This document shows, piece after piece, positions 1 to 33,078 of a stretch of DNA of 46,293 nt (positions are counted from its first letter, which is position 1; each line of letters starts with the position of its first letter). The position numbers were made by a program, and so were the translations under genes. This DNA is from a virus (taxonomy: Duplodnaviria > Heunggongvirae > Uroviricota > Caudoviricetes): IMG/VR virus record IMGVR_UViG_2872164251_000001. One strand, written 5' to 3'. Under the pieces are notes generated by a model. The model had not been told where the DNA came from, made no database searches, and saw only the letters and a program-made list of their open reading frames with translations.

Positions 1-1039
1 TTACCTCGCATTTAAGTAAACCACGTTCTCCTCTTGTGCCGTATTTGTGCCATTGCGACTTATAATCGCATCGATTTTGCTTGCGTGCTCGGTGAGATGC
101 CCGGCTGAAAGGTGGGCGTATCTTTGAACCATTTCGAGAGTTTCCCATCCTCCCATCTCTTTAAGTGCAAGAAGAGAGACACCGGACTGAACCAGCCAGC
201 TTGCCCAGGTATGCCTCAGATCATGGAAGCGGAAGTTGCTAATGCCTGCCCGCTTTAACGCTCCCTTCCATGCCTTGTTGCTGTCGGTTCTCATCTTCCT
301 TACCGCTGCTGTTTTTGTTCCGTCGCTTCGGTAGGCAGGTTTGGTGTGGACAAATACCCATCTCTTATGGAGCCCCTGCTGTTTTCTTAATATCTGGCAT
401 GCGGTTTCGTTAAGAGGAACTCCGATCGCATTGCCAGCTTTTGTTTCATCAGGGTGCATCCATGCCATTTTCTTATCCAGATCGACCTGTGACCACTCAA
501 GGTCTGTAACGTTGGAACGGCGAAGGCCTGTCGTGATTGCAAACATGACCACAGGGAAGAAGTGAGGAGCAATTTCTGCAAACAGGCGCTTCGATTCCTC
601 CTCTGTAAGCCATCTGATGCGTCCATTCTTAACGCGTGGTGTTGATATTTTGGGTGCCCTGTCAAGCCATCCCCATTCAACAGCCATATTGAGAATGGCG
701 CGAAGTATTGCCAGATGCCTCGTCTTCGTTCCTTTGCTTGCAAGCTTTGGTTTATACTCCGGCACCGGATTGCCAAGTCGCAAACACCTGTCCCGGCTCA
801 TCTCCCAGTTCAGGCGATGGCGGCGGTTTTCCATCCCGTCTACCGCCTCCATTATTTTTTCTGTTGTTATGTCAGAGAGAATGGCTTCTCTGAAGTGCAA
901 CATCCAGAACGATATAATGCTCTTGTCATCATCAATGGACTTCTTATCCGATTTCTCACGCAGCCACCGTATGCAGGCTTCCTTGAATAGCTTTTTCGGT
1001 GATTCCCCGAGATTTTTTACTCTCCACGCTTTGAAGTGG

Positions 1040-2208
<1,169 letters not shown>

Positions 2209-2289
2209 TGGAGCACCTGTGTTGTTCTGAGGTGAGCATATCACCTCTGTTCAGGTGGCCAAATTCAGTGTGCCACTTCACTTCTGCTT

Positions 2290-2637
2290 TCAGACGATCG
2301 TGAAGTTCTTGCGCTTGCCTTTTGTCCGATGTTTCAAGAGAGCGTCTAACTCTTGATCCATCTGGCGCGACGAAATCGCAGTGCCACGTGCCACCGCGTA
2401 GTTTGATTGACATGCTTTAACCTCCTGCACATCAACCGCATTCACCGCGCTATTGTGTCTCACAGACTTAAGCGCCGCAATGCAGTCTGACTTGCAAATG
2501 CGATATGGGCTTTTAGGTTTATCTGGATTTATCTTTACGGCCTGAAGTCGTCCACTTCGTATCCACTGCGTGATAGTGCCTTTGTCTACCTTCAGATACG
2601 ACGCTGCCTCTTCACGAGTGAAGATTTCTTCTTCCAC
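2290..2637 (-). CDS. xis: Excisionase-like DNA-binding protein (AlpA/Xis-type HTH), GTG start
   Basis: MEEEIFTREEAASYLKVDKGTITQWIRSGRL HTH; directly upstream of and overlapping integrase start; GGAG 7 nt before GTG. Confidence 0.6.
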   Translation of the reverse strand: MEEEIFTREEAASYLKVDKGTITQWIRSGRLQAVKINPDKPKSPYRICKSDCIAALKSVRHNSAVNAVDVQEVKACQSNYAVARGTAISSRQMDQELDALLKHRTKGKRKNFTIV

Positions 2638-2727
2638 CTGGAATCTCCATTTATTGGATTGGTATTATTGCGGTAGGTCTGGATATCATTGAGCAATGAA
2701 CAGGCCTCATCGAGTATGAGGCTGTGG

Positions 2728-2975
2728 TTAGTCCTTGCGTAACTCGCTAATTCTTCTGTAAGTCTCTGGTGCTTTGTTTCCGTGTATCTTCATTTCAGAC
2801 TTCAACAGATCAACGAGGGAATCCCATTCGTTGAGGATGCCTTTGAATGCCGGAACGCGCTTTGCAACCTTGTCGAATGAATCTCTGATTTCTGGGATCT
2901 GCTCAACAAGTGCAACGCATCGTCTGAAATCGGCTGCGTCATGGGGAGCGCCGAAGTGATGACCATAGATATTCT
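2728..2975 (-). pseudogene. 3' fragment of an early-region gene, 5'-truncated at the IS629-like junction
   Basis: Frame open from IS boundary: ...NIYGHHFGAPHDAADFRRCVALVEQIPEIRDSFDKV...ELRKD stop; no start codon. Confidence 0.3.
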
Positions 2976-3017
2976 TGAACCGCCCCGGGTTTCCTGGAGA
3001 GTGTTTTATCTGTGAAC

Positions 3018-3908
3018 TCAGGCTGCCAGATCATCGTTTCCGATGGAAGCATAATAAGCTTTTTCTGCTTCTGCCGGAGGGATGTGGCCCAGCCTTTCCA
3101 GCAATCGTCGATTGTTATACCAGTCCACCCACGTTAGTGTGGCCAGTTCCACTTCTGCACGGTTTTTCCAGCTCTTACGGTGTATTACCTCCGCTTTGTA
3201 AAGACCATTGATGCTCTCCGCCATCGCGTTGTCATACGAGTCGCCTGTACTTCCTGTTGATGCCAGTAATCCGGCTTCCTTAAGCCGCTGTGTGTAGGCC
3301 AGCGATACATACTGAGAACCTTTATCACTGTGATGGACCGTGCCGGACGGTCGACGGGCCCATAACGCCTGCTCCAGTGCATCCAGCACGAATGTCGTTT
3401 CCATGGACGATGAGACCCGCCACCCCACGATGTATCCGGCAAACACATCAATGATGAACGCCACATAGACGAAGCCCCTCCATGTGCTGACGTAAGTAAA
3501 ATCAGCCACCCACAGCTGGTCAGGTCGTTCTGCCACGAACTGACGGTTTACGCGGTCGCCTGCGGCAACGGCTTTCCGGCTGATGGTCGTACGGACCTTT
3601 TTACCCCGGAGAACACCGGCAAGTCCCATAACCGCCATGAGACGTGCCACAGTGCATCTGGCCACTCTGATACCTTCCCGTAACAACTGACGCCAGACTT
3701 TACGCACACCGTATACCTTGTGATTTTCATCGTATACGCGCTGTATCTCTTTCTTCAGCCAGTCATCGCGCTGCGCACGGGCACTGCGTTTATCCGGATG
3801 ATGTCGCTGTTGCTGACAGTGGTAATACGTTGACGGGGCAATATGCAGTTCGCTGCATAGCGGTCCGACCCCGTACTGCTCACGCAGCTTATCCAGCAGT
3901 GGCATCAT
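3018..3908 (-). CDS. IS629-like OrfB transposase
   Basis: 296-aa IS3-family DDE transposase ORF overlapping OrfA. Confidence 0.8.
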
Positions 3909-4171
3909 TTTTTCCAGAGGCGGTCGAACTCCGCCTTCGCAAAATAAGCGGAAGCCTGGCGAAGGATATCGTTACTGCGGCGCAGTTCACGATTTTCACG
4001 CTCCAGCTCTTTCAGACGCTGACGTTCAGCGGTGGTGAGCCCTCCATCACCGCCCCCGGTATCCCGCTCATGCTGGCGAACCCAGACACGCAGAGTCTCC
4101 GGCGTACTTTCCAGAACCATACGGACTGCCCGTTGACGGACTTCGGGGGAAAAACGAGTATTTTTAGTCAT
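3905..4171 (-). CDS. IS629-like OrfA (shortened)
   Basis: [37 protein letters not shown]... Confidence 0.75.
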
Positions 4172-4225
4172 CCTGTTTACCTCCTTCTCAGGAAGTTTAG
4201 TCTCCAGGATTCCCGGGGCGGTTCA

Positions 4226-4645
4226 TCGTGCGAGGAAATGACAATGCTTTTAATTCAACCTGGATTTGGCCTTAGCATCAAAAAAGGGCACATGTTTGGC
4301 GAGAAAGAGTCTCAACGAAAAATGGTGTCGATACAGTTGCCATTTATCAGTATTTATTGGCTAAACAGGGAGGCAACAAATTATTGGTATACCTGCGCCA
4401 GAGCAGCATTTAACGACCCTGACTGGTTTGTGAAAAACCACCACGCAGTTCGTCAGGCAAAGAGAAAGGCCAATACGACATACATGAAGGCGTATCGAAA
4501 AGCATGGAAAGAACACCGCGATCGATACCAACAAGACATGGAAAAGCTTGAATCAGAAAACATGGAATTAAGACGAAAGCTCGGTGAAGCAAAACGAGAC
4601 ATCGATGCTTACAAGCGACTTTTTAATGGTGAAAGCCATGCTTAG
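4226..4645 (+). pseudogene. 5'-truncated nin-region ORF reading out of the IS629-like junction
   Basis: Frame open across IS boundary; C-terminal ...MKAYRKAWKEHRDRYQQDMEKLESENMELRRKLGEAKRDIDAYKRLFNGESHA. Confidence 0.3.
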
Positions 4646-4814
4646 CCCATCCCAATCCCTTCAATACCAGAAAGAAAGCGTCGAGCGAGCTTTAACGTGC
4701 GCTAATTGCGGTCAGAAGCTGCATGTGCTGGAAGTTCACGTGTGTGAGCACTGCTGCGCAGAACTGATGAGCGATCCGAATAGCTCAATGTACGAGGAAG
4801 AAGACGATGAATGA
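4638..4814 (+). CDS. ninF: NinF-like small Cys-rich protein
   Basis: ESVERALTCANCGQKLHVLEVHVCEHCCAELMSDPNSS matches lambda NinF as I recall it; start overlaps upstream stop. Confidence 0.55.
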   Translation: MLSPSQSLQYQKESVERALTCANCGQKLHVLEVHVCEHCCAELMSDPNSSMYEEEDDE

Positions 4815-5529
4815 GTTAATAAATGGCAATGCCATCAAAATGACAAGCATTGAAATCGCTGAGTTGGTTGGTAAGCGTCATGACAATGTGAAACGTACCA
4901 TCGAAACGCTGGCTAAAAATGGTGTTATCCGGCTTCCTCAAATTGAGGATTGTGGAAGAATCAATGGGTTAGGCTTAAATCAAAGTTTTTGTGTGTATGT
5001 GTTCGAAGGCGAACAAGGAAAGCGAGACAGTATTGTCGTTGTAGCCCAGTTGTCGCCGGAATTCACCGCTCGCCTTGTTGACCGCTGGCGAGAGCTTGAA
5101 GAAGCTGCGGTTAATATCCCCAAAACGCTACCGGAAGCGTTGCGCCTTGCTGCTGATCTTGCTGAGCAGAAAATGCAACTGGAAAACCAGCTCGCAATTG
5201 CCGCACCTAAAGTTGAGTTTGCCGATCGCGTTGGCGAGGCCAGCGGAATTTTGATTGGAAACTTTGCAAAGGTTGTTGGAATTGGTCCAAACAAACTGTT
5301 TGCGTGGATGCGCGATCACAAAATCCTTATTGCTTCAGGTTCCCGGCGCAATGTGCCAATGCAGGAATATATGGATCGCGGCTATTTCACAGTGAAAGAA
5401 ACAGCGGTCAACACAAATCACGGAATACAGATATCGTTCACCACAAAAATCACCGGGCGTGGTCAACAGTGGCTGACCAGAAAGCTGCTCGATAATGGAA
5501 TGCTGAAAGTAACAGGGGAGGCTGCTTAA
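4807..5529 (+). CDS. Rha-family regulatory protein with C-terminal ANT/KilAC antirepressor domain
   Basis: MTSIEIAELVGKRHDNVKRTIETL Rha-like N-terminus; ADRVGEASGILIGNFAKVVGIG ANT-like C-terminus. Confidence 0.7.
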   Translation: MNELINGNAIKMTSIEIAELVGKRHDNVKRTIETLAKNGVIRLPQIEDCGRINGLGLNQSFCVYVFEGEQGKRDSIVVVAQLSPEFTARLVDRWRELEEAAVNIPKTLPEALRLAADLAEQKMQLENQLAIAAPKVEFADRVGEASGILIGNFAKVVGIGPNKLFAWMRDHKILIASGSRRNVPMQEYMDRGYFTVKETAVNTNHGIQISFTTKITGRGQQWLTRKLLDNGMLKVTGEAA

Positions 5530-5819
5530 TGGCTAATCTACGCAAAGAAGCACGCGGCAGAGAATGCCAGGTACGTATTTACGGCGTATGCAATGGTAAT
5601 CCTGAAACTACAGTTCTGGCACATTACCGGATGGCTGGAATTTGCGGAACGGGAATGAAGCCTGACGACCTGATCGGCGCATGGGCTTGTAGCGCGTGTC
5701 ACGATGAAATCGACCGACGCACCCATAATCTCGACAACAAAGACGCCAGACTTTACCACCTCGAAGGCGTGATCAGGACGCAGGCGATACTGCTGAAGGA
5801 GGGGAAGATTAAGTCATGA
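5529..5819 (+). CDS. DUF1364 (YbcO-like) putative nuclease
   Basis: ARGRECQVRIYGVCNGNPETTVLAHYR...ACSACHDEIDRRTH; position upstream of rusA. Confidence 0.7.
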   Translation: MANLRKEARGRECQVRIYGVCNGNPETTVLAHYRMAGICGTGMKPDDLIGAWACSACHDEIDRRTHNLDNKDARLYHLEGVIRTQAILLKEGKIKS

Positions 5820-6178
5820 GCGAATATCAGTTTGTGCTTCCATACCCGCCGTCGGTGAACACCTACTGGCGAAGACGGGGAAACCAATACTACATCAGCG
5901 ATAAAGGCCAGAAATACCGAAAAGAAGTTCAGCAAATAATCCTCCAACTCAAGTTAGACATTTTCACCAAATCACGACTCCGCATCAAAGTCATCGCAGA
6001 CGTTCCAGACTCCCGCCGCCGCGACCTCGATAACATCCTGAAAGGTTTACTCGACTCCCTTATCCACGCCGGATTTGCGGAAGACGACGAGCAATTCGAT
6101 GACATTCGCGTAATTCGTGGTGTGAAAGTACCAGGCGGAAGGCTTGGAATAAAAATCACCGAACTGGAGAACGTATGA
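5816..6178 (+). CDS. rusA: RusA Holliday-junction resolvase
   Basis: LPYPPSVNTYWRRRG...RRRDLDNILKGLLDSL...GGRLGIKITE. Confidence 0.85.
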   Translation: MSEYQFVLPYPPSVNTYWRRRGNQYYISDKGQKYRKEVQQIILQLKLDIFTKSRLRIKVIADVPDSRRRDLDNILKGLLDSLIHAGFAEDDEQFDDIRVIRGVKVPGGRLGIKITELENV

Positions 6179-6363
6179 ACGCCACAATTCAAACGATACC
6201 AGAGCTTCTTATCCAGACACGAGGCAATCAGACCGAAGTGGCGAGGATGCTTTCCTGCGCAAGAGGAACAGTGCTCAAGTACAACCGAGACAGCAAAGGC
6301 GAGCGTCACGTAATAGTTAACGGCGTCCTGATGGTCAAACAGGGCAAGAGGGGAAGACGATGA
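6175..6363 (+). CDS. ninH: NinH-like protein
   Basis: IPELLIQTRGNQTEVARMLSCARGTVLKY...IVNGVLMV resembles lambda NinH. Confidence 0.65.
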   Translation: MNATIQTIPELLIQTRGNQTEVARMLSCARGTVLKYNRDSKGERHVIVNGVLMVKQGKRGRR

Positions 6364-6983
6364 GACTCGAAAGCGTAGCTAAATTTCATTCGCCAAAAAG
6401 CCCGATGATGAGCGACTCACCACGGGCCACGGCTTCTGACTCTCTTTCCGGTACTGATGTGATGGCTGCTATGGGGATGGCGCAATCACAAGCCGGATTC
6501 GGAATGGCTGCATTCTGTGGTAAGCACGAACTCAGCCAGAACGACAAACAAAAGGCTATCAACTATCTGATGCAATTTGCACACAAGGTATCGGGGAAAT
6601 ACCGTGGCGTTGCAAAGCTTGAAGGAAATACTAAGGCAAAGGTACTGCAAGTGCTCGCAACATTCGCTTATGCGGATTATTGCCGTAGTGCCGCGACGCC
6701 GGGCGCAAGATGCAGAGATTGCCACGGTACAGGCCGTGCGGTTGATATTGCCAAAACAGAGCTGTGGGGGAGAGTTGTTGAGAAAGAGTGTGGAAGATGC
6801 AAAGGCGTCGGCTATTCAAGGATGCCAGCAAGCGCCGCATATCGCGCTGTAACGATGCTAATCCCCAACCTTACCCAACCCACATGGTCACGCACTGTTA
6901 AGCCGCTGTATGACGCTCTGGTGGTGCAATGCCACAAGGAAGAGTCAATCGCAGACAATATTTTGAATGCGGTCACACGTTAG
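6360..6983 (+). CDS. Q: Late antiterminator Q, lambda type
   Basis: 207 aa, MRLESVAKFHSPKSPMMSDSPRATASDS... with Cys4 zinc motif CRDCHGTG...CGRCKG; followed by lambda-like PR'. Confidence 0.85.
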   Translation: MRLESVAKFHSPKSPMMSDSPRATASDSLSGTDVMAAMGMAQSQAGFGMAAFCGKHELSQNDKQKAINYLMQFAHKVSGKYRGVAKLEGNTKAKVLQVLATFAYADYCRSAATPGARCRDCHGTGRAVDIAKTELWGRVVEKECGRCKGVGYSRMPASAAYRAVTMLIPNLTQPTWSRTVKPLYDALVVQCHKEESIADNILNAVTR

Positions 6984-7025
6984 CAGCATGATTGCCACGG
7001 ATGGCAACATATTAACGGCATGATA

Positions 7026-7054
7026 TTGACTTATTGAATAAAGTTGGGTAAATT
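7026..7054 (+). promoter_or_regulatory. PR' late promoter (-35 TTGACT, 17-bp spacer, -10 TAAATT) with qut region
   Basis: TTGACTtattgaataaagttgggTAAATT immediately downstream of Q. Confidence 0.6.
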
Positions 7055-7060
7055 TGACCC

Positions 7061-7253
7061 AACGATGGGTTAATTCGCTCGTTGTGGTAGTGAGATGAAA
7101 AGAGGCGGCGCTTACTACCGATTCCGCCTAGTTGGTCACTTCGACGTATCGTCTGGAACTCCAACCATCGCAGGCTGAGAGGTCTGCAAAATGCAATCCC
7201 GAAACAGTTCGCAGGTAATAGTTAGAGCCTGCATAACGGTTTCGGGATTTTTT
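7061..7253 (+). ncRNA. Short terminated late leader transcript (lambda 6S-RNA-like)
   Basis: From predicted PR' start to tR' hairpin; about 190 nt; ends inferred not measured. Confidence 0.5.
7196..7253 (+). terminator. tR' rho-independent terminator
   Basis: 10-bp arms ATCCCGAAAC / GTTTCGGGAT followed by TTTTTT. Confidence 0.6.
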
Positions 7254-7694
7254 ATATCTGCACAACAGGTAAGAGCATTGAGCCGATAATCGTGAAGAGT
7301 CGGCGAGCCTGGTTAGCCAGTGCTCTTTCCGTTGTGGTGAATGCACAGGCTGATGTGTAAGGGCAAGAATCTTTCGCTGGATTCGGTGTGGCCACGTAGC
7401 CAGCTGTAGGCAGTTGCAGCAAACCGGAGATCAGCACCGGTCGCCACAATCCAAACTGAGCCGTAGCCACTGACTATCCTGAATTCATCAGTGATAGTTA
7501 CGCTGCGGCCTTCTACACATGATCTTCGTGAAAGTGGGCGGCATGAGGTTGCGCTAACAACCTAATGCCGTTTTGCCCGTGCATATCGGTCACGAACAAA
7601 TCTGATTACTAAACACAGTAGCCTGGATTTGTTCTATCAGTAATCGACCTTATTCCTAATTAAATAGAGCAAATCCCCTTATTGGGGGTAAGAC

Positions 7695-8018
7695 ATGAAG
7701 ATGCCAGAAAAACATGACCTGTTAGCCGCCATTCTCGCGGCAAAGGAACAAGGCATCGGGGCAATCCTTGCGTTTGCAATGGCGTACCTTCGCGGCAGAT
7801 ATAATGGCGGTGCGTTTACAAAAACAGTAATCGACGCAACGATGTGCGCCATCATCGCCTGGTTCATTCGTGACCTTCTCGACTTCGCCGGACTAAGTAG
7901 CAATCTCGCTTATATAACGAGCGTGTTCATCGGCTACATCGGTACTGACTCGATTGGTTCGCTTATCAAACGCTTCGCTGCTAAAAAAGCCGGAGTAGAA
8001 GATGGTGGAAATCAATAA
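7695..8018 (+). CDS. S: Holin S, lambda type (dual-start MKM)
   Basis: [43 protein letters not shown]... Confidence 0.9.
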
Positions 8019-8478
8019 TCAACGTAAGGCGTTCCTCGATATGCTGGCGTGGTCAGAGGGAACTGATAACGGACGTCAGAAAACCAGAAATCATGGTTAT
8101 GACGTCATTGTAGGCGGAGAGCTATTTACTGATTACTCCGATCATCCTCGCAAACTTGTCACACTAAACCCAAAACTAAAATCAACAGCCGCCGGACGTT
8201 ATCAGCTTCTTTCCCGTTGGTGGGATGCTTACCGTAAGCAGCTTGGCCTGAAAGACTTCTCTCCGAAAAGCCAGGACGCTGTGGCACTGCAACAGATTAA
8301 AGAACGTGGCGCTTTACCGATGATTGATCGCGGTGATATTCGTCAGGCAATTGACCGTTGCAGCAATATCTGGGCTTCACTTCCGGGCGCTGGTTATGGT
8401 CAGTTCGAGCATAAGGCTGACAGCCTGATTGCAAAATTCAAAGAAGCAGGCGGAACGGTCAGAGAGATTGATGTATGA
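8002..8478 (+). CDS. R: Endolysin R (lytic transglycosylase)
   Basis: [52 protein letters not shown]. Confidence 0.9.
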
Positions 8479-8942
8479 GCAGAGTCACCGCGATTATCTC
8501 CGCTCTGGTTATCTGCATCATCGTCTGCCTGTCATGGGCGGTTAATCATTACCGTGATAACGCCATGACCTACAAAGAGCAGCGAGATAAAAAAGTCAGT
8601 GAGCTGAAGCAGGCGACCGCCACCATTACTGACATGCAGCAACGCCAGCGTGCTGCTGATGCACTCGATGCTAAATACACGAAGGAGTTAGCTGATGCGA
8701 AAGCTGAAAATGATGCTCTTCGGCGCAAGCTTGATAATGGTGGCAGGGTGCTCGTCAAAGGAAAATGCCCTGTGCCATCCTCAGCCGAAACCTCCAGCGC
8801 CTCCGGCATGGGCAATGATGCCACCGTCGAACTCTCTCCAGTTGCTGGACGAAACGTTCTCGGTATCCGGGACGGAATTATCCGCGACCAAACAGCACTG
8901 AGAACGCTTCAGGAATACATCAGGACGCAATGCCTTCGATGA
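8475..8942 (+). CDS. Rz: Rz i-spanin
   Basis: N-terminal [32 protein letters not shown] then coiled coil; central region differs from lambda Rz as I recall it. Confidence 0.8.
8695..8901 (+). CDS. Rz1: Rz1 o-spanin lipoprotein embedded in Rz (+1 frame)
   Basis: [19 protein letters not shown] lipobox then Pro-rich segment. Confidence 0.7.
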
Positions 8943-9116
8943 TAGCGATAATTTTACTCATCATCCTTCACATCTGGCTCTGTAGACAGGGGGGTGATCA
9001 CTTCTGGAGTAAATCCAGATTAAACATCTCATTGCTGATGCTTGATATTGAGCATCTGGCGCGCGGTAAGGGGCTGCGTTGAGATAAGAGCCAGTCATCA
9101 CAAACACCAGGATTTA

Positions 9117-9140
9117 GCCTCGCATTCGCGGGGCTTTTTT
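9117..9140 (+). terminator. Putative rho-independent terminator after lysis cassette
   Basis: CCTCGC att GCGGGG stem (one G-U pair) followed by CTTTTTT. Confidence 0.4.
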
Positions 9141-9287
9141 ATATCTGCAACAAACGCGCTTCACACGCGCGACTTATGAACACAGAGCCTTTCAGGATGA
9201 CCCTTGAGGATGCCGGTTTGGTAATCGGTGCCTTTCTGTGGGCCGGAATCCTGTGTGACAAGGTTCATCACTAAAAGGTAATCACTG

Positions 9288-9793
9288 ATGAAGTACCCAA
9301 CAGTTATTGTCAATGGTGTGTCCGTTCGTGTTGATGAGGATGGACGCTACAACTTAAACGATCTCCATGCAGCAGCAGTTGCAAATGGAGAGGCTACAGA
9401 GCAACAGCGCCCAAGCCAGTTTTTGCGTAGCGCGCAGATAAAACGCTTCATAAAAGCACTTTGGAACAAATTCAACCACTTAAAATAATCAAAGGTGGTG
9501 CAGAACCAGGTGTGTGGGGTGTTGAACTTCTGGCAATCAGATATGCAGCATGGATTAAGCCGGAATTTGAAATCGAAGTTTATGAAGTTTTCAAAACGGT
9601 TGTCCGTCTCGGCGTTGGCGCAATGTCCCGTCTGAATAGAATCGATCACATCATCAATACTGAAACCAAAGCGATAAGCCAGTGCGCAAGCCAAATGGCT
9701 AAGTGGGGCGTTGGTGGGCGAAAAAGATTGCTTCATGTTGCACGTGAGAGAGCGGCAAATGAAGTGCAAATGTATTTGCCCGGAATGGTGTGA
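9288..9793 (+). pseudogene. KilA-N domain gene, frameshifted near 9455-9465
   Basis: 9288-9488 (VIVNGVSVRVDEDGRYNLNDLH) and 9461-9793 (GVWGVELLAIRYAAWIKPEFEIEVYEVF) are consecutive parts of one KilA-N domain in different frames; paralog of 20981-21778. Confidence 0.6.
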
Positions 9794-10234
9794 TTTCGCA
9801 GGTTAATCCAGTTTTTGCATTACGGCAGTACCGCGAAACAACCCAAGCCAGTAAGTGGGGAAATAACACTGGCAGCCACTGAAAGATGAACCTCCAGCCT
9901 TATGGCAAAAAAGATTCTTTGTGGTGGCGGACTGATGGAAAGACATCGGTTATTGCAGAGGCCATTCAATGAGTGGTCTCGATAATGGCTTATACCCTAC
10001 ACGGGATAACTTAACTGATATCCCTTTTAACGGATAAACGGAGCCAACAATGGCAGAGATTATTCCCATGACTGAAGAACAGAAATTCCAGTTAGAGATT
10101 TACAAACTGGTTATGAACCAGAACGCAGCCGCAGAAGAAGCATTTCAGTTCATTGGCACTGATGAAGTGGCACACTGAATTTGGCCACCTGAACAGAGGT
10201 GATATGCTCACCTCAGAACAACACAGGTGCTCCA

Positions 10235-11403
<1,169 letters not shown>

Positions 11404-11411
11404 CCACTTCA

Positions 11412-11501
11412 TTTCTTGCCTCAAATGGCAGTACGTTAACTATTCAGTCAAATGGTGCGGCGTTTACTGCCACAACCATCAAGATAATCGCGGAGCAGTG
11501 A
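11412..11501 (+). pseudogene. 3' end of a gene truncated by IS911 (possibly a P22-type tail-needle gene)
   Basis: Frame open from IS junction: FLASNGSTLTIQSNGAAFTATTIKIIAEQ stop, stop overlaps next ATG. Confidence 0.2.
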
Positions 11502-11956
11502 TGATTCAGTTCAAACCAACGCGAAACATCGACCTGATCGAAGCAGTAGGAAATCACACTGACATTATCGCCGGGAGCAACAACGGCGATGGATACGACT
11601 ACAAGCCTGAATGCCGTTACTTTGAGGTTAACGTGCACGGGCAGTTCGGCGGAATTGTTTACTATCAGGAGATTCAGCCGCTAACCTTTGATTGCCACGC
11701 CATGTACCTGCCAGAGATTCGTGGATTCAGCAAGGAAATCGGGCTGGCGTTCTGGCGATACATTCTGACTAACACCACCGTTCAGTGCGTCACATCGTTC
11801 GCTGCGCGCAAATTCCGCCACGGTCAGATGTACTGCGCAATGATTGGCCTTAAGCGTGTAGGAACCATCAAGAAATACTTCAAAGGCGTGGATGACGTGA
11901 CGTTTTACAGCGCCACACGCGAAGAACTAATCGACTTCCTGAATCACGGGAGATAG
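11501..11956 (+). CDS. Hypothetical virion protein, P22 gp14-like by position
   Basis: 152-aa ORF with GGAG RBS, immediately upstream of the gp7-like gene; assignment by gene order only. Confidence 0.35.
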   Translation: MIQFKPTRNIDLIEAVGNHTDIIAGSNNGDGYDYKPECRYFEVNVHGQFGGIVYYQEIQPLTFDCHAMYLPEIRGFSKEIGLAFWRYILTNTTVQCVTSFAARKFRHGQMYCAMIGLKRVGTIKKYFKGVDDVTFYSATREELIDFLNHGR

Positions 11957-11958
11957 CC

Positions 11959-12651
11959 ATGTTATATGCATTTAAGCTGGGCAGAAAACTGCGCGGCGAG
12001 GAACCTTATTGCCCTGAAAAAGGCGGGAAAGGTGGCAGCTCTGATAAAAGCGCAAAGTATGCAGCAGAAGCTCAGAAGTATGCCGCAGACCTGCAAAATC
12101 AGCAGTGGCAGACGATCATGAAAAACCTTGCTCCGTTCACGCCTCTTGCGGAGCAGTATGTTAACCAGCTTCAGAACCTTTCCAGTTTAGAAGGTCAGGG
12201 GCAGGCACTTAATCAGTATTACAACTCTCAGCAGTATAAAGACCTTGCAGGTCAGGCTCGTTACCAGAGTCTTGCTGCTGCGGAGGCGACGGGTGGACTT
12301 GGTTCGACAGCCACAAGCAATCAACTGGCTACGATCGCGCCGACACTCGGTCAGTCTTGGTTATCAAACCAGATGAGCAATTACAACAATCTGGCAAACG
12401 TTGGGCTTGGTGCGCTGCAAGGTCAGGCAAACGCCGGGCAGACATACGCCAACAACATGAGCAGCATTGCACAGCAAAGCGCAGCTCTTGCCGCTGCTAA
12501 TGCCAACAAACCATCAAGTCTTCAGACAGCAATTAGTGGCGGAACGTCTGGTGCGATTGCCGGTGCAGGTCTTGCCAGCCTTTTGGGAACATCAACACCT
12601 TGGGGCGCTGGCATTGGTGCTGGTATCGGATTGCTTGGCTCGTTGTTTTAA
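11959..12651 (+). CDS. P22/Sf6 gp7-like ejection (injection) protein
   Basis: MLYAFKLGRKLRGEEPYCPEKGGKGGSSDKSAKYAAEAQKYAADLQNQQ..., Gln/Asn/Ala-rich, C-terminal glycine-zipper GAIAGAGLASLLG...GAGIGAGIGLLGSLF; recognised from memory of P22 gp7. Confidence 0.55.
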   Translation: MLYAFKLGRKLRGEEPYCPEKGGKGGSSDKSAKYAAEAQKYAADLQNQQWQTIMKNLAPFTPLAEQYVNQLQNLSSLEGQGQALNQYYNSQQYKDLAGQARYQSLAAAEATGGLGSTATSNQLATIAPTLGQSWLSNQMSNYNNLANVGLGALQGQANAGQTYANNMSSIAQQSAALAAANANKPSSLQTAISGGTSGAIAGAGLASLLGTSTPWGAGIGAGIGLLGSLF

Positions 12652-12660
12652 GGGGTAATC

Positions 12661-12714
12661 ATGGCTACTTGGCAAGGATCAAATGGCGGATTATTGGCTG
12701 GTATCGGCGGCGTC
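12661..12714 (+). pseudogene. 5' fragment of next ejection-protein gene (gp20-like) truncated by IS1
   Basis: MATWQGSNGGLLAGIGGV then the IS1 end. Confidence 0.35.
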
Positions 12715-12729
12715 GGTAATGACTCCAAC

Positions 12730-13233
12730 TTACTGATAGTGTTTTATGTTCAGATAATGCCCGATGACCTTGTCATGCAGCTCCACCGATTTTGAGAACG
12801 ACAGTGACTTCCGTCCCAGCCTTGCCAGATGTTGTCTCAGATTCAGATTATGTCGCTCAATGCGCTGAGTGTAACGCTTGCTGATAACGTGCAGCTTTCC
12901 CTTCAGGCGTGATTCATACAGCGGCCAGCCATCCGTCATCCATACCACGACCTCAAAGGCCGACAGCAGGCTCAGAAGACGCTCCAGTGTGGCCAGAGTG
13001 CGTTCACCGAAGACGTGCGCCACAACCGTCCTCCGTATCCTGTCATACGCGTAAAACAGCCAGCGCTGACGTGATTTAGCACCGACGTAGCCCCAATGTT
13101 CGTCCATTTCAGCGCAGACAATCACATCACTGCCCGGTTGTATGCGCGAGGTTACCGACTGCGGCCTGAGTTTTTTAAGTGACGTAAAACCGTGTTGAGG
13201 CCAACGCCCATAATGCGTGCGCTGGCGCGACAT
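12730..13233 (-). CDS. insB: IS1 InsB (expressed as InsAB' by frameshift)
   Basis: 167-aa ORF typical of IS1 InsB. Confidence 0.85.
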
Positions 13234-13427
13234 CCGACGCCATTCATGGCCATATCAATGATTTTCTGGTGCGTACCGGGCTGAGAGGCGGTGTAAGTGA
13301 ACTGTAGTTGCCATGTTTTACGGCAATGAGAGCAGAGATAGCGCTGATGTCCGGCAGTGCTTTTGCCGTTACGCACCACGCCTTCAGTAGCGGAGCAGGA
13401 AGGACATCTGATGGAAATGGAAGCCAC
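13152..13427 (-). CDS. insA: IS1 InsA
   Basis: [43 protein letters not shown]. Confidence 0.85.
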
Positions 13428-13482
13428 GCAAGCACCTTAAAATCACCATCATACACTAAATCAGTAAGTTGGCAGCATTACC

Positions 13483-13839
13483 AACTGGGGGTAATCCGTA
13501 TTTCTCACGGATTACGGAGTCTATTTTTTCTTCCATTTGTTTATAGTCAGGAAGAAGGCGTTTCAGTGGTGCGGGAATGTCCTGGCAATACGCTTCTGTT
13601 GCATCATGCATTAACGCTTCAAAAGCAAATTCCTGCGGCACCAGCTGGCTGCAAAGAACCGCATGTTGGGCGACGCTGTAGAAGTGCGAAAGATGACCGG
13701 CAAAGCGACAGATATTTGAAAGGGAAACCGCGATATCGTTAATATCGATGTCGTCTTTATTTATCCTGTCATAATAAAAATGCTTCCCGGAAAAAGTTTT
13801 AATAAATGACATTTTGTTCTCCACGTATATGCGCTGCAC
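13483..13839 (-). pseudogene. HD-domain protein (YfdR-like), C-terminally truncated by IS1
   Basis: H..HD signature (RFAGH ... LMHDATEAY); reading frame runs into the IS1 end. Confidence 0.5.
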
Positions 13840-19599: not shown

Positions 19600-20252
19600 T
19601 GAGTAATAAATATTGCCAGGCGCTGGTGGAACTGCGGAACAAACCAGCCCATGAACTGAAGGAAGTGGGCGATCAGTGGCGCACGCCGGACAACATTTTC
19701 TGGGGAATTAACACCCTGTTTGGCCCGTTTGTTCTGGATCTGTTCACTGACGGTGATAACGCCAAATGTGCCGCGTATTACACGGCGGAAGACAACGCGC
19801 TGGCGCATGACTGGTCAGAACGTCTTGCGGAGCTTAAAGGTGCTGCCTTTGGTAATCCCCCATACAGCCGCGCCAGTCAGCATGAGGGGCAATACATCAC
19901 CGGCATGCGTTACATCATGAAACATGCCAGTGCCATGCGTGATAAGGGCGGGCGCTATGTTTTCCTGATCAAAGCTGCCACCAGCGAAGTGTGGTGGCCG
20001 GAAGATGCAGATCATATTGCTTTTATTCGCGGGCGTATTGGTTTTGAACTGCCTGTCTGGTTTATCCCGAAAGACGAGAAGCAGGTACTGACAGGAGCTT
20101 TTTTCGCTGGTGCTATTGCTGTTTTTGACAAGACCTGGAAGGGACCGGCAATCAGCTACATCGGGCGCGATGAACTTGAGGCATGTGGTGAGGCGTTTCT
20201 GGCGCAGGTTCGCCAGCAGGCGGAAAAACTGGTCAGGGAGATGGCGGCATGA
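19599..20252 (+). CDS. Phage DNA N6-adenine methyltransferase (Dam-like)
   Basis: GNPPYS motif; TAATG overlap with upstream gene. Confidence 0.75.
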   Translation: MSNKYCQALVELRNKPAHELKEVGDQWRTPDNIFWGINTLFGPFVLDLFTDGDNAKCAAYYTAEDNALAHDWSERLAELKGAAFGNPPYSRASQHEGQYITGMRYIMKHASAMRDKGGRYVFLIKAATSEVWWPEDADHIAFIRGRIGFELPVWFIPKDEKQVLTGAFFAGAIAVFDKTWKGPAISYIGRDELEACGEAFLAQVRQQAEKLVREMAA

Positions 20253-20575
20253 CGACGTTAACTCAATGCCAGCAGCAGGTGCTGGATATGCTGATTTCTT
20301 ATCAGAAAGAACGTGGCTTCCCGCCAACCAATCAGGAGGTGGCAACCATGCTGGGATACCGTTCGGTGAATGCAGCGGTGGAGCATCTTCGCGCACTGGA
20401 GAAAAAAGGCGTCATCACGATAAAGCGTGGCGTGGCCCGGGGGATAACGCTTCATACCGCGGTGAAGGACGACGACAGCGAGGCGGTCGGGATTATCCGC
20501 GCACTGCTTGCCGGTGAGGAAAACGCAAGGCTGCGTGCAACCCACTGGTTACATGAGAGGGACCTGAAAGTATGA
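20249..20575 (+). CDS. LexA N-terminal DNA-binding-domain protein lacking the peptidase domain
   Basis: MTTLTQCQQQVLDMLISYQKERGFPPTNQEVATMLGYRSVNAAVEHLRALEKKGVITIKRGVARGITL parallels the LexA winged-HTH; ATGA overlaps on both sides. Confidence 0.6.
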   Translation: MTTLTQCQQQVLDMLISYQKERGFPPTNQEVATMLGYRSVNAAVEHLRALEKKGVITIKRGVARGITLHTAVKDDDSEAVGIIRALLAGEENARLRATHWLHERDLKV

Positions 20576-20961
20576 AGCTGATCCTGCCTTTTCCGCCCAG
20601 CGTGAACACGTACTGGCGACACCCCAACAAAGGGGCGTTTGCTGGTAAGAGCCTGATAAGCGCGGCGGGGCGAAAATTCCAGAGCGCGGCGTGCGCAGCA
20701 ATAGTTGAGCAGTTACGTCGTCTGCCGAAACCAACGTCGGCACCTGCTTCAGTGGAGATCGTGTTGTTTCCTCCGGATAACCGGATCCGCGATCTGGACA
20801 ACTATAACAAGGCGCTGTTTGACGCCCTGACCCACGCGGGTGTGTGGGAAGACGACAGTCAGGTGAAAAGAATGCTGGTGGAGTGGGGGCCGGTTATCCC
20901 GGAAGGGAAGGTCGAGATCACTATCAATAAGTACGAGAAAACGGCGGGTGCAGCCGCCTGA
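20572..20961 (+). CDS. rusA: RusA Holliday-junction resolvase (second copy)
   Basis: LPFPPSVNTYWRH...NRIRDLDNYNKALFDALT. Confidence 0.8.
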   Translation: MKLILPFPPSVNTYWRHPNKGAFAGKSLISAAGRKFQSAACAAIVEQLRRLPKPTSAPASVEIVLFPPDNRIRDLDNYNKALFDALTHAGVWEDDSQVKRMLVEWGPVIPEGKVEITINKYEKTAGAAA

Positions 20962-20980
20962 TTAAGAGGAGAAACGAAGT

Positions 20981-21778
20981 ATGAATAATCTGATGGTCAT
21001 TGATGGTATTGAAGTTCGTCGTGATGCTTATGGGCGTTACAGCCTGAACGATCTGCACAGGGCTGCCGGTTCTCAGGATAAGCATAAGCCTGCATTCTGG
21101 CTCCGCAATGAGCAAACCGAACGTTTAATAAGCGAGTTGCAGATTTGCAACTCGGTCAATATAGAGCCAGTTAACGTTAGTCGTGGCGGAAATAACCAGG
21201 GGACGTATGTCTGCAAAGAACTGGTGTATGCCTATGCAATGTGGATCAGCCCGTCATTCCATCTGAAGGTGATCCGTACTTTCGATATGGTAACCAGCGC
21301 ACCGGAAAAATTATCCGGGCAGGCTGCTGACAAGATGCAGGCTGGCGTGATTCTGCTGGACTTTATGCGGCGGGAGTTAAACCTGTCTAACTCATCTGTG
21401 CTTGGGGCCTGTCAGAAACTCCAGGAGGCTGTTGGCTTACCGAATCTGGCACCACGCTATGCCATTGATGCTCCTGCTGACGCGCCTGATGGCTCAAGTC
21501 GCCCTACGCTGTCGCTGAGTGCACTGCTGAAACAGTATGGTATCCGCCTGACAGCTAATCAGGCATATCACCAGATGGCGAAGCTGGGGATCGTTGAACA
21601 ACGCGAACGATACAGCCGTACCGCGATTAACAACATCAAAAAATTCTGGTCGCTGACGGCGAAAGGCTGCATGTTCGGCAAGAACATTACCAGTCCTGCA
21701 AATCCGCGCGAGACGCAGCCGCATTTCTTCGAATCCCGATTCCCTGAGCTGTTAAAGCTGCTCGATACCGTTCATTGA
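20981..21778 (+). CDS. KilA-N domain antirepressor-like protein
   Basis: MVIDGIEVRRDAYGRYSLNDLH...GTYVCKELVYAYAMWISPSFHLKVIRTF. Confidence 0.7.
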   Translation: MNNLMVIDGIEVRRDAYGRYSLNDLHRAAGSQDKHKPAFWLRNEQTERLISELQICNSVNIEPVNVSRGGNNQGTYVCKELVYAYAMWISPSFHLKVIRTFDMVTSAPEKLSGQAADKMQAGVILLDFMRRELNLSNSSVLGACQKLQEAVGLPNLAPRYAIDAPADAPDGSSRPTLSLSALLKQYGIRLTANQAYHQMAKLGIVEQRERYSRTAINNIKKFWSLTAKGCMFGKNITSPANPRETQPHFFESRFPELLKLLDTVH

Positions 21779-21779
21779 G

Positions 21780-22775
21780 GTGACCGTGAGAGCACTACTG
21801 ACCCCTGAAATTGCCCCGCGTATGGGGATCGTATTGTTCAGACCAGGTTCAGAGCTGATGCCCCTGTTTATGCAGGGGCGTGTACTGCTGGAGCCTGAGC
21901 CGGAACGTTATTCATCTTTCGCCAGTGGTGCCGTTCCCGCGGCATCACAACCGCTGGCGGATGATCCTGCTGTTCGGGCCGTGTTCCGCAATGAGGCAGT
22001 GATCCGTCGTGCTGGTGGCGTGGAATGTCTTGAAAGCTGGCTACTTCGTGAAAAAGGCTGCCAGTGGCCTCATTCCGACTGGCACAGCGAGAACATGACC
22101 ACAATGCGACACGCTCCGGGCGCAATCCGTCTGTGCTGGCACTGTGATAACCAGCTGCGCGATCAGTTCACGGAACGGCTGGAATCAATGGCAACGGATA
22201 ACTGTGCCCGCTGGGTGTTGTCTGTTGTGCGTCGGGATCTCGGTTTTGATGATAGTCACGTTGTGACAATGCCGGAACTGTGCTGGTGGCTGATTCGTAA
22301 TGACCTGGCGGATGCCTTACCGGAAAGTGCAGCCCGTAAGGCACTGAGATTACCAAAGCCTGTTGTGCCGTCTGTCACCCGGGAAAGTGACCTTGTGCCT
22401 TCGGTTCCTGCCACCAGCATCATCCAAGATAAGGCAAAAAAGGTGCTGGCGCTGAAAGTGGATCCGGAGTCGCCGGAGTCTTTTATGTTACGCCCAAAAC
22501 GTCGCCGCTGGGTTAATGAGAAGTACACGCGCTGGGTTAAGACACAGCCGTGTGCATGTTGTGGAAAGCCCGCTGATGATCCCCACCACCTGATAGGCCA
22601 CGGTCAGGGGGGAATGGGTACAAAAGCGCATGACCTCTTTGTGTTGCCTTTGTGCAGAAAGCATCACGACGAGCTGCATGCGGATACCGTGGCATTTGAA
22701 GAGAAGTATGGCTCCCAGCTGGAGCTGATATTTCGTTTTATCGATCGTGCGCTGGCAATTGGCGTGCTGGCCTGA
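21780..22775 (+). CDS. DUF968-like nin-region protein with C-terminal HNH-like Cys/His motif
   Basis: C-terminal CACCGKPADDPHHL...LPLCRKHHDELH. Confidence 0.5.
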   Translation: MTVRALLTPEIAPRMGIVLFRPGSELMPLFMQGRVLLEPEPERYSSFASGAVPAASQPLADDPAVRAVFRNEAVIRRAGGVECLESWLLREKGCQWPHSDWHSENMTTMRHAPGAIRLCWHCDNQLRDQFTERLESMATDNCARWVLSVVRRDLGFDDSHVVTMPELCWWLIRNDLADALPESAARKALRLPKPVVPSVTRESDLVPSVPATSIIQDKAKKVLALKVDPESPESFMLRPKRRRWVNEKYTRWVKTQPCACCGKPADDPHHLIGHGQGGMGTKAHDLFVLPLCRKHHDELHADTVAFEEKYGSQLELIFRFIDRALAIGVLA

Positions 22776-22789
22776 TTTGGTGGAGAAAG

Positions 22790-23158
22790 TTGATGCGTGA
22801 TATTCAGATGGTTCTTGAGCGTTGGGGAGCATGGGCGGCGAGTGATAGTTCAGGCGTTGACTATTCACCTATAGCTGCTGGGTTTAAGGGACTTCTTCCC
22901 TATACCAGCAAGAAACGCTTGGCTTGTTCGGATAGTGATGCATTAATTATTGAAGGTTGTCTTGCTCGTCTAAAGCAAAAAAGACCTTATGAGCATTCGC
23001 TTCTTGTGGCACATTATTTATACAGAATATCCAAGCGTAAGATTGCAAAGGCGCGTGGAAAGGATGAGAAATTGATACGTATAGAAATACAGCTAGCCGA
23101 AGGATTTATTGATGGCTGCCTTTCCATGCTAGATCTAACATTAGATTTGGACGTTTAA
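22790..23158 (+). CDS. Late antiterminator Q (QuuD/phi82-like small Q)
   Basis: MRDIQMVLERWGAWAA... N-terminus as in DLP12 QuuD from memory. Confidence 0.7.
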   Translation: MMRDIQMVLERWGAWAASDSSGVDYSPIAAGFKGLLPYTSKKRLACSDSDALIIEGCLARLKQKRPYEHSLLVAHYLYRISKRKIAKARGKDEKLIRIEIQLAEGFIDGCLSMLDLTLDLDV

Positions 23159-23186
23159 TAATACGCCCCATGCAGGGGCGTATTAT
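23159..23186. terminator. Bidirectional hairpin between Q and the antisense KAP NTPase gene
   Basis: ATACGCCCC atgca GGGGCGTAT palindrome. Confidence 0.5.
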
Positions 23187-24518
23187 TTACTGGATGAATG
23201 ACATTTGATTAATATATTTTATCAATAACTCTCTGGGTGTAGTACTCCAAAAATTTAGGTGTTCATAATCAGTATAAACAGTGGTGAATTTTTTAAGTTC
23301 TTCATCACTTTTAGGGGCAAATCGCTCATTAAGAGTAATACTGTCTTTAATTATTCCGAAGAATACAATAGATATTTCAGGAATTTGCGATCTTCTCTCA
23401 TAAGAATAAGGTATTTCTTTTATGTTAAGCAGATCTGCTAAATGAGATATAGATTCTGCGGTAATTTCTTGTTTTAGTTTTTCCTTGTCACCAAAGCAAT
23501 GTATGAAGACAGCTACGACAAAGATCTTATTTATTAAAGGATCACTGCTTTTGTACTCATCGTCGTTTAATAGTTGAAAAATGTTAAGATTGCGTGAAAA
23601 AGTTTGTGTTTCACGTAAGGATAAGTTGGTTCGTTGAATTAAATCACGGATAAATCTACCAGATAACCTATTAATTTCATTTAATGATTTTGTCTTGTCT
23701 ACAAGGTAATTCCAATATATAACAGATGTTTTACATACGACGTGACCATTTATTAAACATGTGTCTGGAAGCGTGATGGTATATTTTATAAACTTGTCAA
23801 GATACTTTTGTGAGTTAATACTATAACCATAAATATGATTTATCGATGCTTTTAATTGTTCTGTGTTTGTAACTAAAATAAAAAAGACATTATTGATGTC
23901 AAAAATGTGTTTTATTGTTTCAATGACATTTGTTGAAAAACTCGGCTTACATCGGTCTAATTCATCAATTATAATTACTATCTTTTGACTTTCTGAAATG
24001 CTTTCGATGCAAGATTTAAGTGAATTTATGTTTTTCTCTGATTCCATATGGTCTTCAAGCAAATTTTCAATAGTCCCATCTATTGCTGCATTGCTTGCTT
24101 TCTTCATCGCATCTTGGAATTCTTCGGAAACTTCACTAGCCTCCTGTCGTAAAAACCAACCTGCACCAGCTTTTAGTACCGTTTTTAAACCAAAGCGAAT
24201 TGCAGGAAGAGATCTCTTAATGAAGTGTTGTTTTTCTTCCTCAGGTAAAATGCTGGCAATTGCAGAGGTTATGAGAAGTAATGGAGATTCTGCATGATCC
24301 CCTTTAAAGGCATCAATATAAACAACTTTAGATTCAGTTTCTTGCTCAATAATGAGATTTTTCAGTTTGATACTAAATTCTGTTTTCCCTGTTCCCCATG
24401 CGCCGTCTATTACCAGTGGTGAAATGTCTGCCTCTGGTTTTAGCAACTTGATGATATTTTCAGCGATGTTTCTGCGTTGGAACTCGTCACGTTCAGTGAA
24501 AGATAGTGTATCTAACAT
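23187..24518 (-). CDS. KAP-family P-loop NTPase (PifA-like), AT-rich moron
   Basis: Walker A GAWGTGKT, Walker B IIIDELDRC; 443 aa; much lower GC than flanks by eye; opposite strand to late operon. Confidence 0.75.
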   Translation of the reverse strand: MLDTLSFTERDEFQRRNIAENIIKLLKPEADISPLVIDGAWGTGKTEFSIKLKNLIIEQETESKVVYIDAFKGDHAESPLLLITSAIASILPEEEKQHFIKRSLPAIRFGLKTVLKAGAGWFLRQEASEVSEEFQDAMKKASNAAIDGTIENLLEDHMESEKNINSLKSCIESISESQKIVIIIDELDRCKPSFSTNVIETIKHIFDINNVFFILVTNTEQLKASINHIYGYSINSQKYLDKFIKYTITLPDTCLINGHVVCKTSVIYWNYLVDKTKSLNEINRLSGRFIRDLIQRTNLSLRETQTFSRNLNIFQLLNDDEYKSSDPLINKIFVVAVFIHCFGDKEKLKQEITAESISHLADLLNIKEIPYSYERRSQIPEISIVFFGIIKDSITLNERFAPKSDEELKKFTTVYTDYEHLNFWSTTPRELLIKYINQMSFIQ

Positions 24519-24580
24519 AATATAAACCTATTAACTCCTACAGTAAAAAACGAATAATACGACTTTGGGATTAAAAATCA

Positions 24581-24609
24581 TTAACGCGGTCCGCAAAAAT
24601 TCTTGTAAT
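24581..24609 (+). promoter_or_regulatory. Putative PR'-type late promoter for the lysis/structural operon
   Basis: TTAACG-17 bp-TGTAAT, followed about 35 bp later by a terminator hairpin. Confidence 0.4.
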
Positions 24610-24644
24610 CTGTTAAGAGTGGTTACTTCGCCACACAGCTTAAA

Positions 24645-24672
24645 CCCGCCGTCGAGCGGGTTTTGTCGTTTT
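24645..24672 (+). terminator. Putative tR' terminator (Q antitermination target)
   Basis: CCCGC cgtcga GCGGG followed by TTTTGTCGTTTTT. Confidence 0.5.
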
Positions 24673-25141: not shown

Positions 25142-25144
25142 TTT

Positions 25145-33076: not shown

Positions 33077-33078
33077 GT

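Follow-up and report, generated by a model that had tools for sequence, protein, structure and literature searches.

The DNA analysed here (the window) is a stretch of 46,293 nucleotides from an IMG/VR virus record (IMGVR_UViG_2872164251_000001) and is 100% identical to the chromosome of Shigella flexneri 3b SFL1520 (CP032513.1; window position x is position 262513 + x of that record). Our subject is the segment at positions 11412–12714 (the fragment), a short run of genes resembling virion genes of the phages P22 and Sf6, which is bounded by two insertion sequences (ISs). An earlier note on this DNA had named the flanking elements as IS911 and IS1, and these were indeed found at 10163–11411 and 12715–13482, respectively. 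Proteins and DNA of the window were compared with Pfam and PHROGs, with P22 by BLASTP and with the complete Sf6 genome (AF547987.1) by alignment. The fragment contains the following features.

11412..11501, plus strand: last 30 codons (3′ end) of the tail-needle knob gene, a homologue of Sf6 gene 9 and P22 gene 26; Pfam Phage_tail_NK, 146–175 of 175, E = 9.7e-13
11501..11956, plus strand: gp14-like gene (DUF2824; Sf6 gene 10), intact, 151 amino acids (aa) plus stop
11959..12651, plus strand: gp7-like ejection-protein gene (Sf6 gene 11), intact, 230 aa
12661..12714, plus strand: gp20 homologue stub (Sf6 gene 12), first 18 codons, cut by IS1

The fragment corresponds to Sf6 9013–10315 with 97.2% nucleotide identity across all 1303 bp, and at least 80% of it is covered by 102 phage records. 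PHROGs names the segment at 11412–11501 'tail needle knob', concordant with the Sf6 annotation. The stop codon of this needle gene overlaps the start codon of the gp14-like gene (TGATG), as it does in Sf6. The gp14-like product matches Pfam DUF2824 (PF11039) with E = 5.4e-53 and 179.5 bits against a cut-off of 25, and 140 of its 151 residues (93%) are identical to those of P22 gp14 (BLASTP, 7e-111); its gene has the position expected of the family, between the needle gene and the gene 7 homologue. The gp7-like product aligns with Pfam P22_gp7 (PF25688) over residues 1–230 of 230 (E = 1.8e-134; 447.2 bits against a cut-off of 28), is 83% identical to P22 gp7 (191 of 230 residues; BLASTP, 1e-108) and belongs to PHROG 598, 'DNA ejection'. 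It is composed of 16.5% A, 12.6% G, 11.7% L, 10.4% Q, 9.6% S and 7.4% N, with overlapping GxxxG motifs at residues 194, 198, 216, 218 and 220, all within the last 40 residues, and it is encoded between the gp14 and gp20 homologues, as expected from the P22-like virion order. The gp20 stub starts with ATG at 12661 and matches the N terminus of the Sf6 gene 12 product (the gp20 homologue of that phage) at 18 of 18 residues; its eighteenth codon is followed directly by the IS1 end GGTAATGACTCC at 12715.

The order of the truncated gp26, gp14, gp7 and truncated gp20 genes is that of genes 14-7-20 in P22 and 10-11-12 in Sf6, and the gene sizes agree as well. Judged from these alignments, the similarity to Sf6 and P22 is far beyond chance. 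Relative to Sf6, the gp14 homologue differs at 17 nucleotides and 2 aa and the gp7 homologue at 12 nucleotides and 2 aa, mostly synonymously, and this comparison revealed no frameshifts or stops in either gene. Sequence searches of the Protein Data Bank with the gp7 and gp14 homologues returned no matches, and neither did NCBIfam.

The earlier note had listed a 152-residue open reading frame (ORF; the count includes the stop), a 230-aa protein and the first 18 codons of a third gene, all of which lie where it put them. Its recognition of the 230-aa protein as P22 gp7-like with a C-terminal glycine zipper is borne out by the GxxxG motifs and by the full-length P22_gp7 match, and the protein search that it proposed, in which a lack of similarity to podovirus proteins was to count against it, yielded the identities given above for gp14 (93%), gp7 (83%) and the gp20 stub (18/18 with Sf6). 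Its description of podovirus ejection proteins is correct for the gene order but not for gp14, which PHROGs names 'head morphogenesis' and whose family is annotated for head morphogenesis or virion stabilisation, not as an ejection protein as such. Likewise, its statement that capsid and tail genes are missing alongside needs amending for the tail-needle stub at 11412–11501; beyond the fragment, alignment of the complete Sf6 genome found no other Sf6 virion genes within the window, in which the only head genes belong to an SfII-like myovirus.

The IS911 joint and the prophage to its left

The fragment lies at the right-hand end of what we call prophage A (1–12714), and IS1 separates it from a second prophage, B (13483–46293). 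The elements that define the joints are as follows.

10163..11411, plus strand: IS911 copy 2, 1249 bp, 99.0% identical to the IS911 of Sf6
12715..13482, minus strand: IS1, joint of prophages A and B, 768 bp
1032..2280, minus strand: IS911 copy 1, inside the prophage A integrase gene (int), 99.84% identical to the IS911 of Sf6
10050..10162, plus strand: truncated DUF2560 gene (Sf6 gene 67 homologue), first ~37 codons; Pfam DUF2560, 1–36 of 72, E = 1.1e-18; cut by IS911 copy 2

A simple insertion of IS911 creates a 3-bp target duplication, and one of IS1 a duplication of 8–9 bp. The IS911 assignment follows from a length of ~1250 bp, orfA and orfB, and terminal inverted repeats (IRs) reading TGAAGTGG..., and the IS1 assignment follows from the IRs GGTAATGACTCCAACTTACTGAT and GGTAATGCTGCCAACTTACTGAT (~23-bp IRs are expected) and from ORFs for InsA (91 aa) and InsB (167 aa). 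IS911 copy 2 is flanked by TGA (10160–10162) on one side and TTT on the other, without a 3-bp duplication, and the 9-bp flanks of IS1, GGCGGCGTC and AACTGGGGG, are unlike each other. By contrast, IS911 copy 1 is a simple insertion with a CTT/CTT duplication, beyond which the match to phage DNA picks up again with an overlap of 3 bp. Because the two ISs that bound the fragment lack target duplications and copy 1 has one, these two elements are read as rearrangement joints and not as simple insertions.

On the far side of IS911 copy 2, the following window segments align with Sf6.

7451–8591: Sf6 36218–37359, 96.8% identity
8907–9104: Sf6 37645–37843, 97.0% identity
9820–9947: Sf6 37956–38083, 98.4% identity
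9971–10166: Sf6 38522–38717, 96.4% identity

The DNA to the left of IS911 copy 2 (7451–10166) is therefore colinear with Sf6 36218–38717, lies on the same strand as the fragment and has 96.4–98.4% identity, compared with 97.2% for the fragment. Across the element, the Sf6 coordinates jump from 38717 to 9013. The gene cut at 10162 is that for DUF2560; its place in intact P22-like prophages is directly upstream of the small terminase gene. Colinearity with Sf6 and co-orientation on both sides show that IS911 copy 2 sits at the joint of a deletion of ~9.3 kb within one prophage. The deleted DNA corresponds to Sf6 38718–39043 plus 1–9012 and contains the genes for the small and large terminase subunits, portal, scaffold, coat and head-completion proteins, along with the needle gene except for its last 30 codons.

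By its sequence, prophage A appears to be a decayed, mosaic Sf6-like (Lederbergvirus, P22-like) prophage integrated at the tRNA gene thrW by proA. Window position 1 is exactly the int stop codon, and directly beyond it CP032513.1 contains tRNA-Thr(CGT) (thrW), proA, proB and phoE (L021, 12637–12842). The int gene shows 98.4% nucleotide identity to the integrase genes of HK542 and mEp213, the attP sites of which are annotated as thrW-like; the Sf6 genome has no match to window 1–1031, and the integrase is thus of the thrW type and not that of Sf6. The remaining features of prophage A are listed below.

1..1031, minus strand: integrase, C-terminal part, thrW-type; Pfam Phage_integrase, E = 8.6e-35; the N-terminal end resumes at 2281, beyond IS911 copy 1
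2290..2637, minus strand: excisionase (xis); Pfam HTH_17; 97.3% nucleotide identity to the mEp213 xis region
2976..4225, minus strand: IS629-like IS3-family element, 1250 bp; rve/HTH_21 transposase (Pfam)
4226..6983, plus strand: nin region and late antiterminator (Pfam), with NinF at 4605–4814, ANT/Rha at 4807–5529, YbcO at 5529–5819, RusA at 5816–6178, NinH at 6175–6363 and Q at 6360–6983, all on the plus strand
7695..8942, plus strand: intact lysis cassette of holin (107 aa), endolysin (158 aa) and Rz (155 aa); Pfam Phage_holin_3_1 and Phage_lysis
9288..9793, plus strand: KilA-N domain pseudogene, split by a frameshift into two ORFs that match the N- and C-terminal halves of Pfam KilA-N

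The IS629-like element occupies the place of the early-left, immunity and replication regions. It contains a predicted apical loop–internal loop (ALIL) frameshift pseudoknot at 3834–3950, its ends read TGAACCGCCCCGGG, and its flanks, TCT and TCG, show no duplication, which makes it the third IS joint without a duplication in prophage A, with IS911 copy 2 and IS1. Past it, window 4672–4809 is 97.1% identical to Sf6 ninF. Prophage A is not a complete Lederbergvirus prophage: its IS joints have removed the early region, the block from terS to gp26 and everything past codon 18 of gp20. Two smaller differences from Sf6 were also observed. The KilA-N pseudogene lies in a ~700-bp segment that is not present in Sf6, and between window positions 9947 and 9949, Sf6 gene 66 (Phage_gp49_66) is cleanly missing.

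We also considered whether int and xis at the left end belong to the SfII-like prophage, with the block from IS629 to IS1 inserted into it. This assignment was rejected because the SfII integrase gene is only ~67% identical over 406 nucleotides, the int gene of a B-type prophage in Escherichia coli L038 (CP098229.1) has no megablast match to window 1–1031, and xis in the draft contig L022 runs into Sf6-like early genes.

Related genomes, prophage B and the probable order of deletions

Related assemblies retain other states of the same locus. Over xis and the int::IS911 junction, two draft contigs (L022 and L023) do not differ from the window. In L022 (1–9661), identity extends up to window position 2976 and is followed by early-left and immunity genes that are 96–99.5% identical to Sf6 20186–27541 (99.5% in the immunity region). 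In L024/L034, L029 and L031 (the K-type genomes), thrW is followed by a truncated int, IS911, a truncated needle gene, gp14, gp7 and a gp20 gene of 443 aa, and the arrangement continues to mnt and tailspike genes. In S. flexneri assemblies other than SFL1520 (L024, L029), the segment of truncated gp26, gp14 and gp7 is always tied to the same thrW integrase::IS911. Together, the colinear left flank, the linkage to thrW and the early region in L022 argue that the fragment belongs to the left-hand prophage remnant, and the same three observations count against the view of the earlier note that it is the isolated relic of a third phage lineage. The distal part of gp20 in L034 diverges from Sf6, and prophage A is thus not Sf6 itself but a mosaic relative.

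The same comparison orders the two deletions. Genome L030 has the joint of truncated DUF2560, IS911 and truncated needle gene, and its gp20 continues past codon 18 with AACTCAAACG, as in Sf6. Because L030 has the IS911 joint and no IS1 in gp20, the IS911 deletion would be older than the IS1 event. The full window arrangement is present in L026 and L036, at 99.98% identity over 12.4 kb. Of the 1045 assembly blocks with the exact gp14 protein, 651 are on contigs shorter than 2 kb, as would be expected of an IS-bounded 1.3-kb fragment in short-read assemblies. The exact gp7 protein was found in 23288 assembly blocks, intact P22-like prophages included. No GTDB species-representative genome contains the exact IS911/needle junction, as expected given that Shigella is collapsed into E. 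coli representatives. Similarly, no RefSeq complete E. coli genome contains the IS911–fragment–IS1 arrangement, the only matches of at least 80% coverage being ISEc52-associated analogues at 89% identity.

To the right of IS1 lies prophage B (13483–46293), a nearly complete SfII/SfV-like myovirus with 97–98% identity to the structural and replication genes of SfII, from which the int/xis end is absent. Its first surviving gene and one further gene are as follows.

13483..13812, minus strand: HD-hydrolase homologue, truncated, 110 of 178 codons kept
23187..24518, minus strand: KAP-family nucleoside triphosphatase (NTPase) gene, 443 aa (Pfam PF07693), between the prophage B Q gene and the lysis cassette

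Alignment with SfII, PhiR29_2 and E. coli L038 sets in exactly at 13483, and the full-length gene in L038 encodes 178 aa. Fusion to IS1 creates an HD-hydrolase product of 118 aa, the ATG-start version of which was found in 110 assembly blocks; the lookup for the ORF from the GTG start was empty. At the KAP NTPase position, SfII has other genes, and the gene may be a moron or defence-type cargo. The earlier note had placed the fragment on the strand opposite to the neighbouring early genes. This is true of the early-left operon of prophage B only, and the late genes of both neighbours are on the same strand as the fragment.

In E. coli L038, a B-type prophage of 98.5% identity runs through xis and int straight to thrW–proA in the same orientation as prophage B. 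The order in the window is thrW, A, IS1, B, with both prophages co-oriented and IS1 joining codon 18 of gp20 to the early-left arm of prophage B. Experiments with SfI and SfX have demonstrated tandem lysogeny at thrW, the newcomer entering the attL of the resident in the same orientation (PMC3306764), and the two co-oriented SfI and SfX prophages at thrW–proA match the order thrW–A–B seen here. In contrast to that pair, the junction between A and B in the window is deleted and IS1 stands in its place; tandem integration is what we infer here, rather than what was observed.

These observations suggest a history in which prophages A and B would once have been tandem lysogens at thrW. The IS911 deletion of ~9.3 kb would have come first, followed by an IS1-associated deletion of ~9–11 kb, which would have taken what remained of A (including gp20, gp16, tailspike and att) together with the int/xis end of B. 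The fragment is very probably an inert relic of this process, the last virion-gene segment of the decayed Sf6-like prophage A, and its only likely activity is as recombination homology. The window lacks a functional P22-type ejectosome, as gp20 is reduced to 18 codons and there is neither a gp16 homologue nor any Sf6/P22-type head gene. Because gp20 is truncated and the gp16, capsid, portal and tail genes are gone, gp14 and gp7 can be neither packaged nor used. The one plausible biological role of the 1.3 kb would be to offer homology for recombination with incoming Sf6-like phages. The fragment is real but ordinary: IS-eroded prophages are commonplace in Shigella, and it is of an already known kind.

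Alternative explanations and comparison with known systems

Several observations weigh against this reading of the fragment. An intact A/B junction was found in none of the genomes. Both genes are intact and the fragment is seemingly fixed in many assemblies, which is as compatible with selection as with recent clonal inheritance. Weak read-through from IS911, predicted from sequence, is the only evident expression route, and some expression is thus possible. Finally, IS911 stands in opposite orientations at one needle breakpoint, which is unaccounted for by a simple one-deletion history. At this breakpoint, |TTTCTTGCC, the needle gene abuts the right (IRR) end of IS911 copy 2 in the window (11405–11420) and the left (IRL) end in the K-type genomes (for example, 5900–5915 in L024, CP054892.1), at the same nucleotide.

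The IS911 copies themselves bear on the last point. The K-type IS911, which also interrupts int, matches copy 1 at 11 sites where copy 2 alone differs from the other copies, and the IS911 of Sf6 equals the K-type IS911 at all 13 sites that are variable among the four copies compared. In copy 2, 10 substitutions are clustered at IS positions 246–371. An origin of the K-type arrangement by homologous recombination between the two IS911 copies of the window was considered and rejected. These copies are inverted, and their recombination would lead to an inversion and not a deletion; moreover, the IS end abutting the needle stub would not change, and the single-nucleotide differences show that the K-type IS is of the copy 1 type. 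IS911 is known for a tendency to insert itself beside the end of a resident copy. Candidate explanations of the opposite orientations are independent hits at a hotspot, or insertion beside a resident IS911 end followed by a deletion between the two ISs, and the breakpoint could be a natural record of end-targeted insertion by IS911. Free phages were also observed to have IS911 copies of their own, at 32879–34127 in Sf6 (L003) and at 21098–22351 in SfII (L019), and phage genomes may themselves shuttle IS911 into these prophage loci.

An alternative origin is that the fragment is a piece of the oac-carrying Sf6 prophage that confers the 3b serotype on SFL1520 (a remnant reported in the 'fourth phage region') and was moved to thrW by an IS1- or IS911-mediated rearrangement. 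The SFL1520 genome paper describes only cryptic or deleted prophages and no complete Sf6, with Sf6 remnants around oac in another phage region and 152 IS1 ORFs (PMC6424224), and both the number of IS1 ORFs and the two joints without target duplications would suit such a move. We nevertheless consider it very unlikely, since the segment is tied to the prophage A integrase at thrW in several arrangements and genomes, and colinearity of the left flank needs no translocation. In addition, the distal gp20 of L034 is unlike that of Sf6, and the integrase is of the thrW type, with no Sf6 match to window 1–1031.

The same left-flank evidence bears on an independent third phage lineage, unrelated to its neighbours and worn down to 1.3 kb between two ISs. 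Such a lineage would fit the missing target duplications of both bounding ISs and the lack of any other P22-like virion gene in the window, but it is highly improbable. Past IS911, the DNA resembles that of Sf6; it is colinear, has the same strand and degree of divergence, and ends in the DUF2560 gene, the normal predecessor of a P22-like virion operon. Furthermore, the segment abuts the same thrW int::IS911 in the K-type genomes, and in L022 an Sf6-like early region is attached to this int/xis.

The intact reading frames raise the question of whether the gp14–gp7 pair has been domesticated by the host, for example with a membrane-active ejection protein being expressed at a low level by IS911 read-through and selected for interfering with, or complementing, DNA delivery by Sf6-like phages. 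The mostly synonymous differences between two intact ORFs, and the wide occurrence of the fragment, are in line with this proposal, as is transcription of IS911 directed into the fragment: orfB of copy 2 ends 8 nucleotides inside the IS end and points towards gp14, with no terminator before it. However, no sigma-70-like promoter was predicted between IS911 and gp14. A terminator-like hairpin was predicted after Rz, and Q-dependent late transcription would be unlikely because the early promoters of prophage A went with the IS629-associated deletion. At most, expression would come from predicted read-through that starts either at the IS911 transposase promoter or in the orphaned late operon. The gp14- and gp7-like proteins matched 0 families among the PADLOC defence-system models at E ≤ 0.01, and the different operon extents kept by other lineages resemble neutral decay. 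Moreover, the gp7 protein is identical to an allele of intact prophages, and the differences of both genes from Sf6 are mostly synonymous, so that the intactness of the genes reflects divergence in living phages and recent decay by large IS-mediated deletions rather than by point mutation, and selection in the host after that decay is not required. We therefore regard domestication as very improbable. That IS911, the fragment and IS1 transposed here as one mobile composite unit has next to no probability despite the ISs on both sides, because the IS3 and IS1 families have unrelated transposases and ends and cannot act as one transposon, the outer flanks, TGA (10160–10162) and AACTGGGGG (13483), show no target duplication, and each of them is accounted for by prophage colinearity.

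The reading of the fragment as a relic of prophage A adds little new biology. The IS911, IS629-like and IS1 elements dismantle Shigella prophages through large deletions, and the short, sequence-perfect gene runs left behind can be mistaken for independent relics. When an 'isolated' phage fragment is found between ISs, colinearity beyond the IS should thus be checked before a separate lineage is counted. The decay series at thrW, from an intact prophage through the IS911 deletion to the IS1 fusion with an SfII-like prophage, could also serve as an S. flexneri lineage marker. The SFL1520 paper (PMC6424224), the supplements of which contain no prophage table, does not discuss this remnant, and the breakpoints and IS types of the remnant differ from those of other IS-eroded prophages.

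Among known systems, the fragment shares gene order, overlaps and spacing with Sf6 from the 3′ end of gene 9 to the 5′ end of gene 12. It differs from Sf6 in being cut by an IS at both ends and lacking the rest of the virion operon, and prophage A has a thrW-type integrase and is mosaic elsewhere. The P22 genes 14-7-20 (the ejection (E)-protein cluster) have the same order and Pfam families. In P22, the E-proteins enter procapsids with the help of the scaffold protein and the virion releases them (PMC4992974, PMC10461980), and all three of gp7, gp20 and gp16, packaged in a procapsid, are required for DNA delivery (PMC10461980, PMC4992974). By comparison, gp20 in the fragment is an 18-codon stub, and gp16 and the cognate head genes are not in the window. 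An independent analogue occurs in E. coli LR-51 (L049; NZ_AP027550.1, 1488310–1495386), where a truncated int, ISEc52, a truncated needle knob gene, DUF2824, gp7, gp20 and gp16 lie by ybhC, and the needle–gp14–gp7 segment is likewise kept beside an IS3-family element. In another P22-like prophage (L011; CP074826.1), an IS3-family element stands in place of terS through coat. In IS-eroded prophages of Shigella and E. coli, such as the Sf6/oac remnant of SFL1520, short stretches of phage genes that are otherwise intact survive large IS-associated deletions, as they do here.

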